A stretch of 64,000 bases of DNA from Terriglobales bacterium (GTDB taxonomy: Bacteria > Acidobacteriota > Terriglobia > Terriglobales > Acidobacteriaceae). The stretch covers positions 37,173 through 101,172 of the forward strand of contig DATHMF010000106.1 of assembly GCA_035487355.1 (NCBI GenBank), written 5' to 3'. Below, one piece after another: positions 27,977 through 32,235 of the stretch (position 1 is its first letter; the number at the start of each line of letters is the position of its first letter). The notes under the pieces were generated by a model that ran no database searches, had not been told where the DNA came from, and saw nothing but the letters and a program-made list of their open reading frames with translations. A program made the position numbers and the translations under genes.

Positions 27977-28051
27977 CAGCAAGCACGCCCAAGCGGCAGC
28001 TTTAGTTAAAACCAAGCAGCGATTTTGAAGAAACACGTACGTAGCCGAGAA

Positions 28052-28104
28052 GGGGATCTTGGCCCACCTGTGACTCTTTAGACAGGCCGGGCAACAAGAT
28101 CCCC
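28052..28104 (+). terminator. Long imperfect hairpin downstream of the GH81/thaumatin gene (possible terminator or element boundary)
   Basis: GGGGATCTTG (28052-28061) pairs perfectly with CAAGATCCCC (28095-28104). Inner pairs are GCCC/GGGC and CCTGT/ACAGG. No U-run follows. Confidence 0.4.
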
Positions 28105-28392
28105 CCTCTATGTATAATGTCGGTTTTGGGAAAGCATTACATCTGTATTTTTTAATGATTGATTGCCAGATTCACAAATGGCGGTACTGACTCCAGTAAC
28201 TGACCGTGCTCTCCTGGAAAATTCTGCTTGCTTCGGCAGGGATTCTACCCCGGCTGTCCTATTTGATGTAATGAGTCGTCAGTGACAAGTGATTGTCTCT
28301 GTAGGAGAGAGAATCGGCCTACTTGCGGTCCCTTTTTTGGAACCTAAGTAAGCGGGGCATCTGCCCGAGTGATGAGTTCTTTAAATTTACCT

Positions 28393-29373
28393 CTACCTGC
28401 GGTCGAGGGCCGCGAGCAAGCGCGTTCGCAAAAGGAACGAGGCGCATTCACGCAATACTTCGGCGCGATTTACACTCTGACCTGAAGTAGATTGTCTGAC
28501 CTTGGGGTTGAGAAAGTCGTCGGGAATCCAGGCGCCATGAACAAATTGATCGTGCAAACTGAACATATCATCCAAAAGCGAACCCACGAGCAAGGGTTCT
28601 GAGGCGTATAGATCACGCTCGGTGGAGTCTTCGTAAATGTCACGAGCGCCATACTCCGCTTCGATTTCTTTCTTGAGTTTCTCCTGGCTTTGAGTTGGAA
28701 TCCGGTCTCCTTGAAACGCTGCCTGGATACCCATCATCCAAACCAGGAACTGCAAAATTGGGTCCCGCACTTCCGAGTAGCCGGCCTCGTAGTACCTGAT
28801 GGCACGGCGTATGCTGGGCGGGCCGCTCTTATACATCCTTGTGAATGCCGGCATCACCCTTCGCAATTCCGTTAAGTCGCGCATGCGCACGCGATTCAGG
28901 ACCTCCGATTCCGGCACATTGATCATGCTTACATCTGGATGCGTGAATCGAAGAACATAGGGCTTGCCGTCTTCTTGCAGCTCGTATTGGATGGCCACAA
29001 ACCGGGCCCGGGTCGGACGGATGATTCGTAAGCACACAAACACTTGTTGGACCAAATCCTGCGACTCGAGTTCGCTCTTTTCAGCTACCTGTTCCGATTT
29101 GAATGCGTGGACGAGCGCAAAAGACATGTCAGCGAGCTTGGAACGTTCGTCCTCTGCAACATAACGCTGCCAAAGATCGAAACTTGTTTTTGAAAATTTG
29201 TCTTTCACCGATTCGACGGACGTGCCGGGGAAAATGGCGAATGGCTTGGTGAGTTCCTCAAGATTGTGGTCCCCCTCAATAGGAGCTATCGTGAATTTCT
29301 GTCTTGAGGACACGCTATTCACACCCTGATTCACACCGTGAGTCGCGACAATTCCTTGTGTTTTCCGTACCAT
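28393..29373 (-). CDS. Hypothetical protein (326 aa) with a possible degenerate HEPN-like helical C-terminal domain
   Basis: It is the second gene of a two-gene minus-strand operon, with a 11-nt gap. The C-terminal helices are IRRAIRYYEAGYSE, PILQFLVWMMGIQAAF, LLDDMFSLHDQFVHGAW and VLRECASFLLRTRLLAAL. HDQFVH sits where HEPN proteins carry Rx4-6H. I cannot assign a family from memory. Confidence 0.6.
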   Translation of the reverse strand: MVRKTQGIVATHGVNQGVNSVSSRQKFTIAPIEGDHNLEELTKPFAIFPGTSVESVKDKFSKTSFDLWQRYVAEDERSKLADMSFALVHAFKSEQVAEKSELESQDLVQQVFVCLRIIRPTRARFVAIQYELQEDGKPYVLRFTHPDVSMINVPESEVLNRVRMRDLTELRRVMPAFTRMYKSGPPSIRRAIRYYEAGYSEVRDPILQFLVWMMGIQAAFQGDRIPTQSQEKLKKEIEAEYGARDIYEDSTERDLYASEPLLVGSLLDDMFSLHDQFVHGAWIPDDFLNPKVRQSTSGQSVNRAEVLRECASFLLRTRLLAALDRR

Positions 29374-29384
29374 GGTTCAGACCC

Positions 29385-30185
29385 CTAACGCTTCCCCAGA
29401 GATGGGCGCGTTGCGGCCCCCCGCCCGGCGCTATTCTCTGTTGAGAGACTTGTTGCCGAGGAGCGATCTGATACCTCGGTGTGTGATGATGGGCGCTGCG
29501 CTGAGGCAGGTCCTGAGTTCGTCTCACTGCTTCCACCAAAGTGAGAGACGGCATTCCGAATACGCCGTTCTTCCTCACGCTTTTTGCCACGCCATTCGTC
29601 CAAGCGTACCTTTTCGCTGACAAGCTCTTTGTCATTGGTTTCTATTCGCAGCCGGAGCTTTTCGATGAGGCGATCAATTTCAGCCTGGGTTTCCTGATTG
29701 TGCTGTTGCTTTGCAGCTTTATAACTTTGGAATGCCTGCTGCTGGCGAGTTTCGAAATCATTCAGCGCGTGCTCGCGCCTGGCAGCGTCTTCGATGACAT
29801 CATTGAGCTGCACATTGCTCACTTCCAGCGCCATCATCACAGCCGCACGTTTAGCTTCGGGTGCAAGATCACGAATGTGCACGGAGCCCAGCATCTCCGC
29901 AATCTTCAAGATAGAAAATCCATGTTTGGGCACGCTAACGCCGGCTTGTGCGTAGACCTCCGAGAGGCCCGGGGTTTGGATCGTGGGCACAGCGGCTGGC
30001 TCGCTCGGCTCGCTGCTTGAAGAAGTTGCAGCCATTTGCATGGGGAGAGCTTCCCGCAAAATCAGATCTGGCACGCTCGCTATCATAGCGGGCTCCAAAC
30101 CAGACGGGTCATCGAACTCGGTGGCGGCCTGTAAAACGGAAGGTTGTGTGGTCATGTTGCAACTTCTTTCCCGGAAGCTAGTCAT
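29385..30185 (-). CDS. Hypothetical protein with a Ser/Pro-rich N-terminus, a central helical domain and a long coiled coil
   Basis: The coiled-coil segment reads ALNDFETRQQQAFQSYKAAKQQHNQETQAEIDRLIEKLRLRIETNDKELVSEKVRLDEWRGKKREEERR. The likelier start is ATG 30155 (MTTQPS). It is the first gene of the operon. Confidence 0.6.
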   Translation of the reverse strand: MTSFRERSCNMTTQPSVLQAATEFDDPSGLEPAMIASVPDLILREALPMQMAATSSSSEPSEPAAVPTIQTPGLSEVYAQAGVSVPKHGFSILKIAEMLGSVHIRDLAPEAKRAAVMMALEVSNVQLNDVIEDAARREHALNDFETRQQQAFQSYKAAKQQHNQETQAEIDRLIEKLRLRIETNDKELVSEKVRLDEWRGKKREEERRIRNAVSHFGGSSETNSGPASAQRPSSHTEVSDRSSATSLSTENSAGRGAATRPSLGKR

Positions 30186-30299
30186 CCGTAGATTTTTTTG
30201 GGGGTAATTCCGGGGGGAACAACTGGGGGCCAGACTTTCTAATTACGCGAGTCTGGGTCTACGTTGATAGCATAGATTTAATATACGATAAAACGCAAG

Positions 30300-30524: not shown

Positions 30525-30538
30525 GTTACTACGGTAAC
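30525..30538. promoter_or_regulatory. Palindrome GTTAC-N4-GTAAC (candidate operator), copy 2
   Basis: GGTTACTACGGTAAC shares GGTTACT...GTAAC with copy 1. An extra GTAAC half-site lies at 30566-30570. Confidence 0.35.
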
Positions 30539-30771
30539 TTGTCAGACGTATCTGGTCGTGAGAAAGTAACCGCAAACCCCCTCCTTTTTGTCCCCCTTTA
30601 ATTTTGCCCCCTTGGAGTTTTAAATGCTTGGAGATTCTTCAAAAGTCCTCAAATACTTGGAGACCCGGAGCTTAGATAATTGTCACTCTCTCTTTGGTCA
30701 CAGCATCGGAGCAGGGGCGTGTATCCTTTGCGTTCGGCAGCTTGAACAACTTTCACTCGGAGCCGAACGCA

Positions 30772-30969
30772 ATGTTTGACGTCAGATTCTCAACGATGGA
30801 TGACCAGCAGTTAGCCAAGCAGATCTGCCAGGAAATAGAGTCACGCTGGAGAGCGTGGCAGATCGAACTTCTTGTATTGGCTAACAATCGCAACTGGGAC
30901 GCGCTGAAAGAGCAGATCAAACGCGGGCCTTCAGCCGGTCGCAAGCCGGTAAACGGGGCGAAGGGCTGA
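30772..30969 (+). CDS. Small helical hypothetical protein (65 aa from ATG 30772; the ORF is open from TTG 30694)
   Basis: The sequence is MFDVRFSTMDDQQLAKQICQEIESRWRAWQIELLVLANNRNWDALKEQIKRGPSAGRKPVNGAKG. GGAG lies 9 nt upstream of ATG 30772. The ORF is upstream of, and co-directional with, the PP2C gene. Confidence 0.4.
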   Translation: MFDVRFSTMDDQQLAKQICQEIESRWRAWQIELLVLANNRNWDALKEQIKRGPSAGRKPVNGAKG

Positions 30970-31076
30970 TAAGAGGTTACTCTTGTGGCCCAAAACATCC
31001 GCATTGCCGTATAGTTTGGTCATATGCTCGCTATGAATTCGAGCATGCGCGAGAATTCTTTTCGTAAAGAGTCCTT

Positions 31077-32156
31077 ATGATGCCCTCAGGGTTAGCTCCC
31101 ACCATTGACGAGTACCTGCGAAAAAGATTGATGCCGGTCGAGGGCGCGATCCCCCACCTGCCTGGAATTGAAATGTACGGCAATTCCATTCCAGCAGGGC
31201 AAGTGGGTGGCGACCTTTTTGAGTACATCAACTTTCAGCAGCGCTACAACATAGACGCCCGCATCGCGCGTACGCAGAAGCTGTCGAAGGAGTACCTGGA
31301 GCCTCTACCCGATGGCGCGAGCCCACGCAATGAAGTTGACCTGCACGTGCAGTGGATGGAATCAAAGCCTGGCTGCACCCCAGAAGACACGATGCAGTAC
31401 AGAAAGGCGAAGTGCTCAGAGCAGATGCGAATTGCCGAGAACCTGCATGAGCTTTACACGACTGCCGGAGTTCTGCTGGTGGACGCACAAGGACATGGAG
31501 TGATCGCAGCTAAGATCGCCTCAACAGTACATGACACCTTCCACGCTCTGATGCTTACCGAGCTCGATCGCAACGGGAAAACCACAACTGACTTAATTGA
31601 GAAGATCAACCTGAGGCTGGCGCAATCGGTCACCGCAAGAAACGCCCTGGGAGGAAGCCCCGACGCTTCACGCGAGATCGCGACCATGCTGTACGGCGAG
31701 ATAGGACCGGACGGAGATTTCCGTTTTGTCAATTTCGGGCACCCACCGCCGCTGGTCTTCTCCGCCGAATACGGCCGGTTCATGGAAATCGATAGGGACC
31801 GTATGGTGCGATTCTTCGCCCTGGGCCTCGAAATTCCCGAGGATAATCCCGACAGAAGCAAGTACGTCTCTATAAAGCTCCGGAAAAGACAGATCGCCGC
31901 ATCCGATTTGGCAGAGATTACGCTCATGGGCCCGGGAGACATCCTGTTTCTCTACACCGACGGTGTTTATGACGGCAGCGATGAGCAGGACAGGCAGGAA
32001 ATAGAACAGATCATCCGAGACCGCAAACAGCAACCGGCAAAAGATATTTGCAGAGCAATCCTGGATTATGCCTTGAAGAAAGACCAATACCTGCAGAAAA
32101 TCGGCGAAGCCGATCGGATTGACGACAAGACCGCATTCATCATTAAACGTGCATAA
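31077..32156 (+). CDS. PP2C/SpoIIE-type serine phosphatase with a large internal insertion
   Basis: Motifs seen are AGQVGGDLFEY ... LLVDAQGHGVIAAKIAS ... FVNFGHPPPLVF ... ILFLYTDGVYDGSD ... DDKTAFIIKR. 84 residues separate GGDLFEY from VDAQGHG, against 11 in the paralog at 5654..6493. Confidence 0.8.
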   Translation: MMPSGLAPTIDEYLRKRLMPVEGAIPHLPGIEMYGNSIPAGQVGGDLFEYINFQQRYNIDARIARTQKLSKEYLEPLPDGASPRNEVDLHVQWMESKPGCTPEDTMQYRKAKCSEQMRIAENLHELYTTAGVLLVDAQGHGVIAAKIASTVHDTFHALMLTELDRNGKTTTDLIEKINLRLAQSVTARNALGGSPDASREIATMLYGEIGPDGDFRFVNFGHPPPLVFSAEYGRFMEIDRDRMVRFFALGLEIPEDNPDRSKYVSIKLRKRQIAASDLAEITLMGPGDILFLYTDGVYDGSDEQDRQEIEQIIRDRKQQPAKDICRAILDYALKKDQYLQKIGEADRIDDKTAFIIKRA

Positions 32157-32235
32157 CAGCAGGCGCGCATAACAGAAGCGTGCACGACCACCTGTCCCCT
32201 TGTTCTATAATCCTGCCTCAAGGAAACCAGACTTG

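Follow-up and report, generated by a model that had tools for sequence, protein, structure and literature searches.

A recurring three-gene module of Terriglobales with a HEPN-like protein in which three predicted catalytic residues have been replaced

In a 64,000-nucleotide stretch of the genome of a Terriglobales bacterium (Acidobacteriota; GenBank assembly GCA_035487355.1, contig DATHMF010000106.1, positions 37,173 to 101,172 of the forward strand), hereafter the window, we describe a rare accessory module of three genes, in which a two-gene operon, A-B, is divergent from a small gene, C. Other Terriglobales carry the same module in another genomic setting. Protein B belongs to a family whose conserved residues follow the pattern of the HEPN ribonuclease (RNase) centre, and three of the predicted active-site residues are replaced in the window and its closest relatives. 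The interpretation that we prefer, tentatively and a little short of calling it probable, combines conflict-system ancestry, a rewired HEPN-like B that works with A, and regulation of the trio through palindromes. The adjacent PP2C phosphatase gene, D, is not part of the module.

Results

All coordinates below are positions in the window, and L-numbers denote fetched loci or contigs that carry relatives of its genes. These relatives were gathered through protein searches and through scans of genomes and metagenomes. The features of the region are the following.

28393-29373, minus strand: gene B, 326 amino acids
29385-30155, minus strand: gene A, 256 amino acids counted from M11; the open reading frame (ORF) can be read from 30185, giving 266 amino acids
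30156-30771, no strand: control region between A and C, 616 bp by the refined starts
30300-30313, no strand: operator-like palindrome GTTACTCTAGTAAC on the A side, a match to GTTAC-N4-GTAAC
30525-30538, no strand: operator-like palindrome GTTACTACGGTAAC on the C side, a match to GTTAC-N4-GTAAC
30772-30969, plus strand: gene C, 65 amino acids; the mechanical ORF from TTG 30694 gives 91 amino acids
31077-32156, plus strand: gene D, a SpoIIE-type PP2C phosphatase, 359 amino acids
27977-28392, no strand: spacer of 416 bp between the convergent ends of a thaumatin-like ORF and gene B; its guanine-plus-cytosine content (GC) is 0.476

The four ORFs and their spacing are as the initial annotation had described them. 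A lies 11 nt upstream of B in the window, the spacer beyond B measures 416 bp, and the spacer between A and C is 508 bp by the mechanical ORFs, or 586-616 bp as a control region after refinement of the starts. The same annotation had treated all four genes as one module, and this holds for three of them. C, A and B keep the window arrangement in L005, L018 and L020, where identity to the window proteins is 85-87% for B and 71-73% for A and C (72% for C). Since these loci have C, A and B and no other window gene within 8 kb, the unit consists of C and, divergent from it, A-B, with D outside. The divergent orientation of the A-B operon and the small ORF, which had also been claimed, is a conserved arrangement in the relatives. 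Three conspecific contigs (L015-L017, 95-99% protein identity) have the same arrangement as the window, with all four genes adjacent, and in L010/L019 A-B is present at a contig end. Across loci the A-B gap is 11-15 nt. In L005 the trio has glutamate synthase and a YCII gene as its neighbours at one end and a gene with an AP-endonuclease fold at the other.

All three genes are under purifying selection. B, the most constrained, has a ratio of nonsynonymous to synonymous substitution rates (dN/dS) of 0.02-0.11, against 0.15-0.28 in A and 0.06-0.18 in the 65-amino-acid core of C. It is because of the selection on this core that we take C to be a real gene. It encodes a 65-residue helical protein with a basic tail and no family hit. 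The small ORF had originally been given as 65 to 91 amino acids, and only the shorter form stood, since it is only the 65-amino-acid core, starting at ATG 30772, that is conserved and stop-free in relatives. We rejected the 91-amino-acid reading from TTG 30694, because the additional upstream part shows no conservation and relatives have it interrupted. Scans of A, B and C against Pfam, NCBIfam, PADLOC and PHROGs gave nothing above threshold.

An exhaustive profile search (E <= 1e-3) recovered, for the family of B, at least 276 representatives at 50% identity, most of them 300-350 amino acids long with the same two-domain layout. In species genomes the family is rare and patchy, with only five loci among 185,579, all in Acidobacteriota. 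The AlphaFold2 model of B (predicted local distance difference test score 86, predicted template modelling score 0.86) has an alpha/beta domain at approximately residues 24-160 and a confident all-helical domain at approximately 164-325. The N-terminal domain carries a conserved CLRxIRPTR motif and has no detectable relative of known fold. When residue conservation was counted over 75 diverse members, L115, R116 and P120 were near-invariant in the first domain, as were R274 (69 of 75), H279 (70 of 75) and G280 in the second. Asn occupies position 275 (N275) in 58 of the 75, and position 217 is Glu in 58 and Asp in 10. The resulting family consensus is L-R-N-x3-H-G, with IEALF upstream.

The signature of the HEPN RNase centre, as set out in passages of PMC3710099, combines Rx4-6H with a polar residue directly behind the Arg (N, D or H) and an acidic residue further upstream. 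The B-family consensus has all three features, with an Arg-His spacing of 4; the Ex3[KR] form of the upstream acidic residue is not seen even in the B family. Profile comparisons point the same way at the level of the family. HEPN_RiboL-PSP was the most frequent Pfam match among its members (6 of 28, and then 10 of 75), and it was the only Pfam family matched by the family consensus, around R-N-x3-H. The best member reached E 0.0089 and the consensus E 0.024, corresponding to 14-15 bits against a cut-off of 28.4. Single sub-threshold matches to HEPN_Swt1 and Abi_2 were also found. The top profile match in the PDB was the HEPN defence protein Ec3ApeA (9hxj, a cryo-electron microscopy structure; E 0.028), in an alignment that spans both conserved blocks, one a helix hairpin that holds the acidic residue (IEAL), the other L-R-N-x3-H-G. 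B itself had no hit in any library searched, and no relative reached a curated threshold. The fold of HEPN proteins is a four-helix up-and-down core; a Foldseek search of the PDB ranked the archaeal HEPN protein 1wol no higher than sixth, a non-significant match (E 2.8, template modelling scores 0.27/0.35). In our judgement, which is not a computed value, the C-terminal domain of B probably belongs to the HEPN superfamily.

In the clade that includes the window, this centre has changed. The family motif L-R-N-x3-H-G is replaced by L-H-[D/E]-Q-F-V-H-G and the upstream block IEALF by IQAAF, so that Glu217 is now Gln, Arg274 is His and Asn275 is Asp or Glu; these replacements are fixed in the window, L005, L010, L016, L018 and L020. 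Measured against the published signature, window B and its clade lack the Arg of Rx4-6H and keep its His, retain a polar residue (D or E) after the Arg position, and have Gln at 217 in place of the upstream acidic residue. His279 and Gly280 are kept, and the next clade, at 63-72% identity, still has R-N. According to passages of PMC3710099, the KEN domain and PrrC need the motif Arg for their RNase activity, and the R502A variant of Ec2ApeA is termed a catalytic mutant in a preprint on ApeA (bioRxiv 10.64898/2026.01.26.701840). Because three predicted catalytic residues have been replaced, the protease found next to B in relatives is gone, and A is coupled to B instead, we infer that B in the window clade is no longer a canonical HEPN RNase.

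A separate clade, approximately 32% identical to B, is represented by L032 (4764-5729) and the near-identical L031 and L035-L040. Its motif is R-D-S-F-V-D-G, in which the motif His has become Asp, and the genes are followed not by a protease but by small ORFs with hydrophobic stretches that, by eye, would be membrane-spanning. Here the putative catalytic motif would have changed a second time and independently, along with the partner.

Further from the window, the usual neighbour of the B-like gene is a protease gene, with which it tends to be translationally coupled. A Trypsin_2 serine protease of 260-290 amino acids lies directly downstream of the B-like gene in 11 distinct loci, in a clade approximately 40% identical to B (L001/L011, L004, L012, L014, L023-L025, L027-L029 and L041). 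The two genes overlap stop to start in L014 and L027 and are separated by 8 nt in L025. In the window clade the protease is absent and A is coupled upstream of B, and no decayed Trypsin_2 gene was found in the window, including the 416-bp spacer. The protease domains of the relatives resemble those of the RT-Protease, LmuA and PDC-M35A models of PADLOC; the pairing of a B-like gene with Trypsin_2 matches no PADLOC model, and a full-text literature search found no paper describing it.

The surroundings of these relatives are often mobile or defence-related. L004 has an integrase, a DnaB-like helicase, an OLD/AbiL-like ATPase, an SLFN-AlbA protein and a McrA-like HNH protein, and L014 has two ParB/RepB genes upstream of the B-like gene. 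Among relatives without the protease, one lies between two integrases, one beside an IS1595 transposase and one beside a DUF1156 DNA methylase. To this extent the defence-island pattern that had been suggested for the window was borne out, in the neighbourhoods of B relatives; in the region itself there is no PADLOC match, no mobility gene among the flanking ORFs scanned, and no nearby tRNA or flanking repeat that would extend it there.

Two of these loci deserve separate mention. At 6353-9783 of L004, an OLD/AbiL/NsnB-like AAA_15-AAA_21 ATPase (393 amino acids), a 149-amino-acid protein, the B-like protein and Trypsin_2 are encoded on one strand with gaps of 7-25 nt; within an element that carries an integrase, these four genes may form a larger system. 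In L027, HTH_3 and Peptidase_M78 (IrrE-like) proteins encoded at 3937-5987 on the minus strand match the PADLOC capH and capP models, approximately 1 kb upstream of the B-like and Trypsin_2 pair (7066-8857). CapH and CapP form a regulator pair tied to the cyclic oligonucleotide-based antiphage signalling system (CBASS) and to other defence operons.

Protein A is probably 256 amino acids long, with its start at 30155, because its homologues begin at the eleventh codon (MTTQPS, M11). A variable, Ser/Pro-rich N-terminus is followed by a conserved helical core (VYxQAGVxVPxHGFSILKIAEML...), a charged helix of approximately 100 residues and a conserved C-terminal RPSLWKR tail. The long helix has 99 residues without Pro, 48% of them E, K, R, Q or D, and is compatible with a coiled coil. 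The A family is a small one of Terriglobales, with 33 clusters, and A adjoins B only in the closest clade. A PDB profile search with A gave chance-level hits only. The RPSLWKR peptide at the extreme C-terminus is near-invariant across the family, solo copies included, and reads RPSLGKR in the window species (29385-29405); its conservation suggests a docking or targeting motif.

In the control region between A and C, conserved blocks adjoin each gene and the middle (approximately 30314-30514) is variable, as seen both by blastn against L005 and in a five-locus alignment; the GC of 30186-30693 is 0.463. Each conserved block carries one palindrome. GTTAC-N4-GTAAC has two matches in the 64 kb, against 0 expected, and both are in this spacer. 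The palindromes are retained in L015-L018 and L020, and in L005 one copy is exact and the other differs at one position; there was no match in 41 other fetched loci. Taken together, the two sites look like an operator pair for two divergent promoters. A search for sigma-70-like promoters gave no hits, terminator-like sites occurred only at chance level, and an Rfam scan of 27-33 kb found no match.

An ATG-initiated ORF (30624-30779, plus strand) precedes C, and its end overlaps the start of C in another frame. The ATG is kept in all five aligned loci and the peptide is poorly conserved. Its weak protein conservation, and the loss of 66-72 nt in L018 and L020, led us to reject it as a gene; a leader or upstream ORF is conceivable, as is no function at all.

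Gene D tells a different story. Its product matches Pfam SpoIIE (PF07228) over residues 131-358 (E 4e-24, 86 bits against a cut-off of 25) and has the motifs GGDLFEY (44-50) and DAQGHG (136-141). The description of D as an atypical phosphatase survives in part: a SpoIIE domain is present, a sensor domain is absent, and an insert of approximately 80 residues between the motifs (54-130) is plausible when judged against the short spacing usual for RsbU-type enzymes. D is no orphan, with 4,735 homologues, of which the best 120 clusters are 74-85% identical and 357-372 amino acids long, nearly all of them 359-360. The insert region is full of invariant columns, and because the family is constant in length, the insert is a family trait. 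Searches of D against the PDB gave nothing with phmmer and chance-level hits only with a profile.

The neighbours of D differ from those of the trio. D is absent beside the trio in L005, L018 and L020. In L042-L044, D (at 7001-8080) follows lipoyl synthase by 24-39 nt within an ACP-KAS-PilZ-LipA-PP2C block, and L045 has it in yet another context. D is a core Terriglobales gene and a chance neighbour of the module, and its assignment to a cassette with the other three genes is not upheld. The reported lack of STAS or anti-sigma genes beside it was confirmed: no STAS or anti-sigma kinase (HATPase) gene was found among the flanking ORFs scanned, which leaves the PP2C phosphatase without the neighbours that a partner-switching set would have there.

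The region had been described as an A/T-rich island. The GC of 27977-32170 (4,194 bases) is 0.521, against 0.554 for the whole window, and this is the lowest-GC 4.2-kb stretch of the window, with only 0.3% of sliding windows equally low. The drop is real but small, and most of it is due to B (0.520) and to two intergenic stretches (0.476 and 0.463). The values for A (0.554), C (0.547) and D (0.541) lie within the gene range of 0.559 +/- 0.024, and in GC at third codon positions (GC3) and codon deviation A and B are approximately one standard deviation off and D is typical. A genomic island would be expected to combine deviating composition with mobility genes, a tRNA target or repeats; that combination is not found here, and the closest tRNA is 8 kb from the region. 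No feature was found in the 416-bp spacer, which has no Rfam match and, by tblastn, no Trypsin_2 remnant.

On one side the flanks comprise a LacI regulator, an MFS sugar transporter and a GH81 glucanase with a thaumatin-like end, and on the other two acetamidase/formamidase (FmdA) genes and an M61 peptidase. The further flanking ORFs scanned were AhpC, a CarboxypepD_reg protein and ORFs of 323, 195 and 103 amino acids without a Pfam match. The thaumatin-like C-terminal domain of the 1,453-amino-acid glucanase is split across two overlapping plus-strand frames, 23238-27599 and 27563-27976, which share 27563-27599; the second ORF holds the end of the Pfam Thaumatin domain. Because the independent conspecific contig L015 shows the same frame change, judged from hit coordinates, the change may be genuine, a frameshift or pseudogenisation, and not an artefact of assembly.

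Discussion

We suggest the following course of events. The ancestral pair of B and Trypsin_2 would have been a conflict system, whether for defence, abortive infection or as a toxin, with the HEPN domain as its RNA-cleaving effector; a defence origin is plausible. The window clade would descend from it with a rewired or silenced RNase centre and without the protease, and there B, in partnership with A, would bind, sense or act as a scaffold. A regulator that recognises the palindromes, most simply C, would govern both promoters. A bolder version would make the B family, with its new alpha/beta N-domain and HEPN-type C-domain, and Trypsin_2 an undescribed two-gene anti-phage or abortive-infection system, and the trio an offshoot of it in which the centre has been rewired and a long-helix partner has replaced the protease. 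This we consider worth entertaining, if on balance unlikely.

Several observations weigh against our interpretation. All HEPN matches of the B family are below curated thresholds, and in structural comparisons with Foldseek neither the whole B model (PDB and BFVD) nor its C-terminal domain alone (PDB) had a significant match. The initial suggestion of a HEPN-type C-terminus therefore stands as a motif at the level of the family; it is qualified by these sub-threshold matches, by the Foldseek result and by the replaced catalytic residues of the window clade. No B relatives were found on viral contigs, phage genomes or plasmids, and neither B nor the B genes of four relatives match any PADLOC model. 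It is conceivable that His stands in for Arg, in which case activity might persist. As to the partnership with A, at approximately 64% identity or lower A is found solo, without B, C or palindromes, and because it occurs alone in other Terriglobales, A is not a dedicated partner of B. A role for C as the palindrome-binding regulator is a proposal in which DNA binding is presumed. Mobility of the trio is also in doubt: no integrase or transposase was found among the window flanks scanned, no flanking direct repeats were found around the region, and the trio was observed in two genomic contexts only.

Three other explanations have to be set beside the one we prefer. All four genes, the PP2C gene included, might have arrived by horizontal transfer as a single cassette for defence or abortive infection, with phospho-signalling in control of a nuclease-like effector, as their adjacency in the window and in L015-L017 and the lowest GC of the window would suggest. 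However, the trio lacks D in L005, L018 and L020, and D belongs to a family of thousands, 74-85% identical across Terriglobales, with neighbourhoods of its own (lipA-PP2C); its GC, GC3 and codon use are typical, and PADLOC gave no hits, so that such a cassette is very improbable. The idea of a simple nuclease effector is in any case weakened, because the predicted catalytic Arg, Asn and Glu are all replaced in the window clade. B could nonetheless still be an active, toxin-like RNase there, with His274 or another basic residue acting for Arg, A as its inhibitor or activator and C as transcriptional controller, in a working module of the toxin-antitoxin or abortive-infection kind. His279 and Gly280 are kept, selection on B is very strong, HEPN families without the Arg and with His and other basic residues, such as Parep1/8, are documented in passages of PMC3710099, and the tight A-B coupling, the divergent small gene and the operators resemble autoregulated toxin modules. 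We think this, the main rival, unlikely, since the change affects three predicted active-site residues at once (E to Q, R to H, N to D), the Arg is required in the KEN domain and PrrC according to passages of the same source, the R502A variant of Ec2ApeA is called a catalytic mutant in the ApeA preprint, and A is found without B in other genomes, which would be unusual for a dedicated antitoxin.

It could also be argued that there is no link to conflict systems at all, the C-terminal part of B being a generic helical bundle with a chance R-x4-H and the trio a lineage-specific regulatory or structural (housekeeping) module of some Terriglobales. The missing significant fold or profile match to HEPN fits this, as do the lack of PADLOC or PHROGs hits, the metabolic flanks of the trio in both of its contexts, and the occurrence of the long-helix protein A alone in related genomes. 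Chance would have to explain, however, why the residues conserved over 75 diverse members are exactly those of the HEPN pattern, why HEPN families are the recurrent sub-threshold matches and ApeA the top PDB match, and why relatives lie repeatedly beside integrases, ParB, CapH/CapP-like regulators, methylases and a transposase. We regard this explanation as distinctly unlikely, and return to that of a rewired HEPN-like protein of conflict-system ancestry.

None of the four proteins matches a catalogued anti-phage system: PADLOC-DB 2.0, which includes an ApeA model, gave no hits for A, B, C or D at E values up to 1. ApeA, a single-protein HEPN anti-phage system, is nevertheless the closest known structure by profile, and it resembles B in having a HEPN domain with insertions after non-catalytic N-terminal domains, which in ApeA form a ligand pocket (bioRxiv 10.64898/2026.01.26.701840). 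ApeA is, however, far larger than the 326 residues of B, with HEPN_ApeA of Ec2ApeA alone occupying 335-583 and the 9hxj chain, a fusion of maltose-binding protein and Ec3ApeA, comprising 1029 residues. Its N-terminal and Mid domains are helical, whereas B has a small alpha/beta N-domain, and it acts alone, whereas genes of the B family come coupled with a protease gene or with A. Window B, moreover, lacks both the catalytic Arg and the three-domain organisation of ApeA.

HEPN_RiboL-PSP (PF18735) and the Abi2/AbiD/AbiF HEPN clade also stand close to B; it is HEPN_RiboL-PSP that the B-family consensus matches, around R-N-x3-H. HEPN_RiboL-PSP is reported in operon with ParB in passages of PMC3710099, and L014 has ParB/RepB upstream of its B-like gene. 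B is not a member by the Pfam cut-off, has no fusion to an endoribonuclease L-PSP domain and carries another N-terminal domain.

RnlA-RnlB, LsoA-LsoB and HepT-MntA are small operons in which a HEPN RNase is restrained by a co-expressed partner. Here there is neither a gene for an MNT nucleotidyltransferase nor one like RnlB, the partner is an upstream 256-amino-acid long-helix protein in the window or a downstream serine protease in relatives, and the window clade is without the catalytic Arg. RnlA does have non-catalytic N-terminal domains before its HEPN domain, as described in part of PMC8266594, and B too has a non-catalytic domain ahead of its HEPN-like one.

D, for its part, resembles RsbU/SpoIIE-type phosphatases in its SpoIIE domain and in the GGD... 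and D-x-x-G-H-G metal-binding motifs, and differs from them in having no sensor domain, no STAS or anti-sigma gene in the scanned flanks, and a conserved insert of approximately 80 residues in a length-constant family that is ubiquitous in Terriglobales. It merits study on its own terms and not as part of a defence cassette, and its removal from the module takes away a false lead.

Within HEPN-type modules, the new elements are an undescribed N-domain, an undescribed pairing with a protease, and a clade whose catalytic centre has been replaced. Should B indeed be of the HEPN kind, it stands for an unannotated family, with at least 276 representatives when grouped at 50% identity, whose usual partner is a serine protease. 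If the bolder version set out above were true, the window clade would be a defence effector caught in the course of becoming a pseudo-enzyme that senses or regulates. A natural clade with swapped catalytic residues and yet strong constraint would be useful for asking how defence effectors are repurposed.

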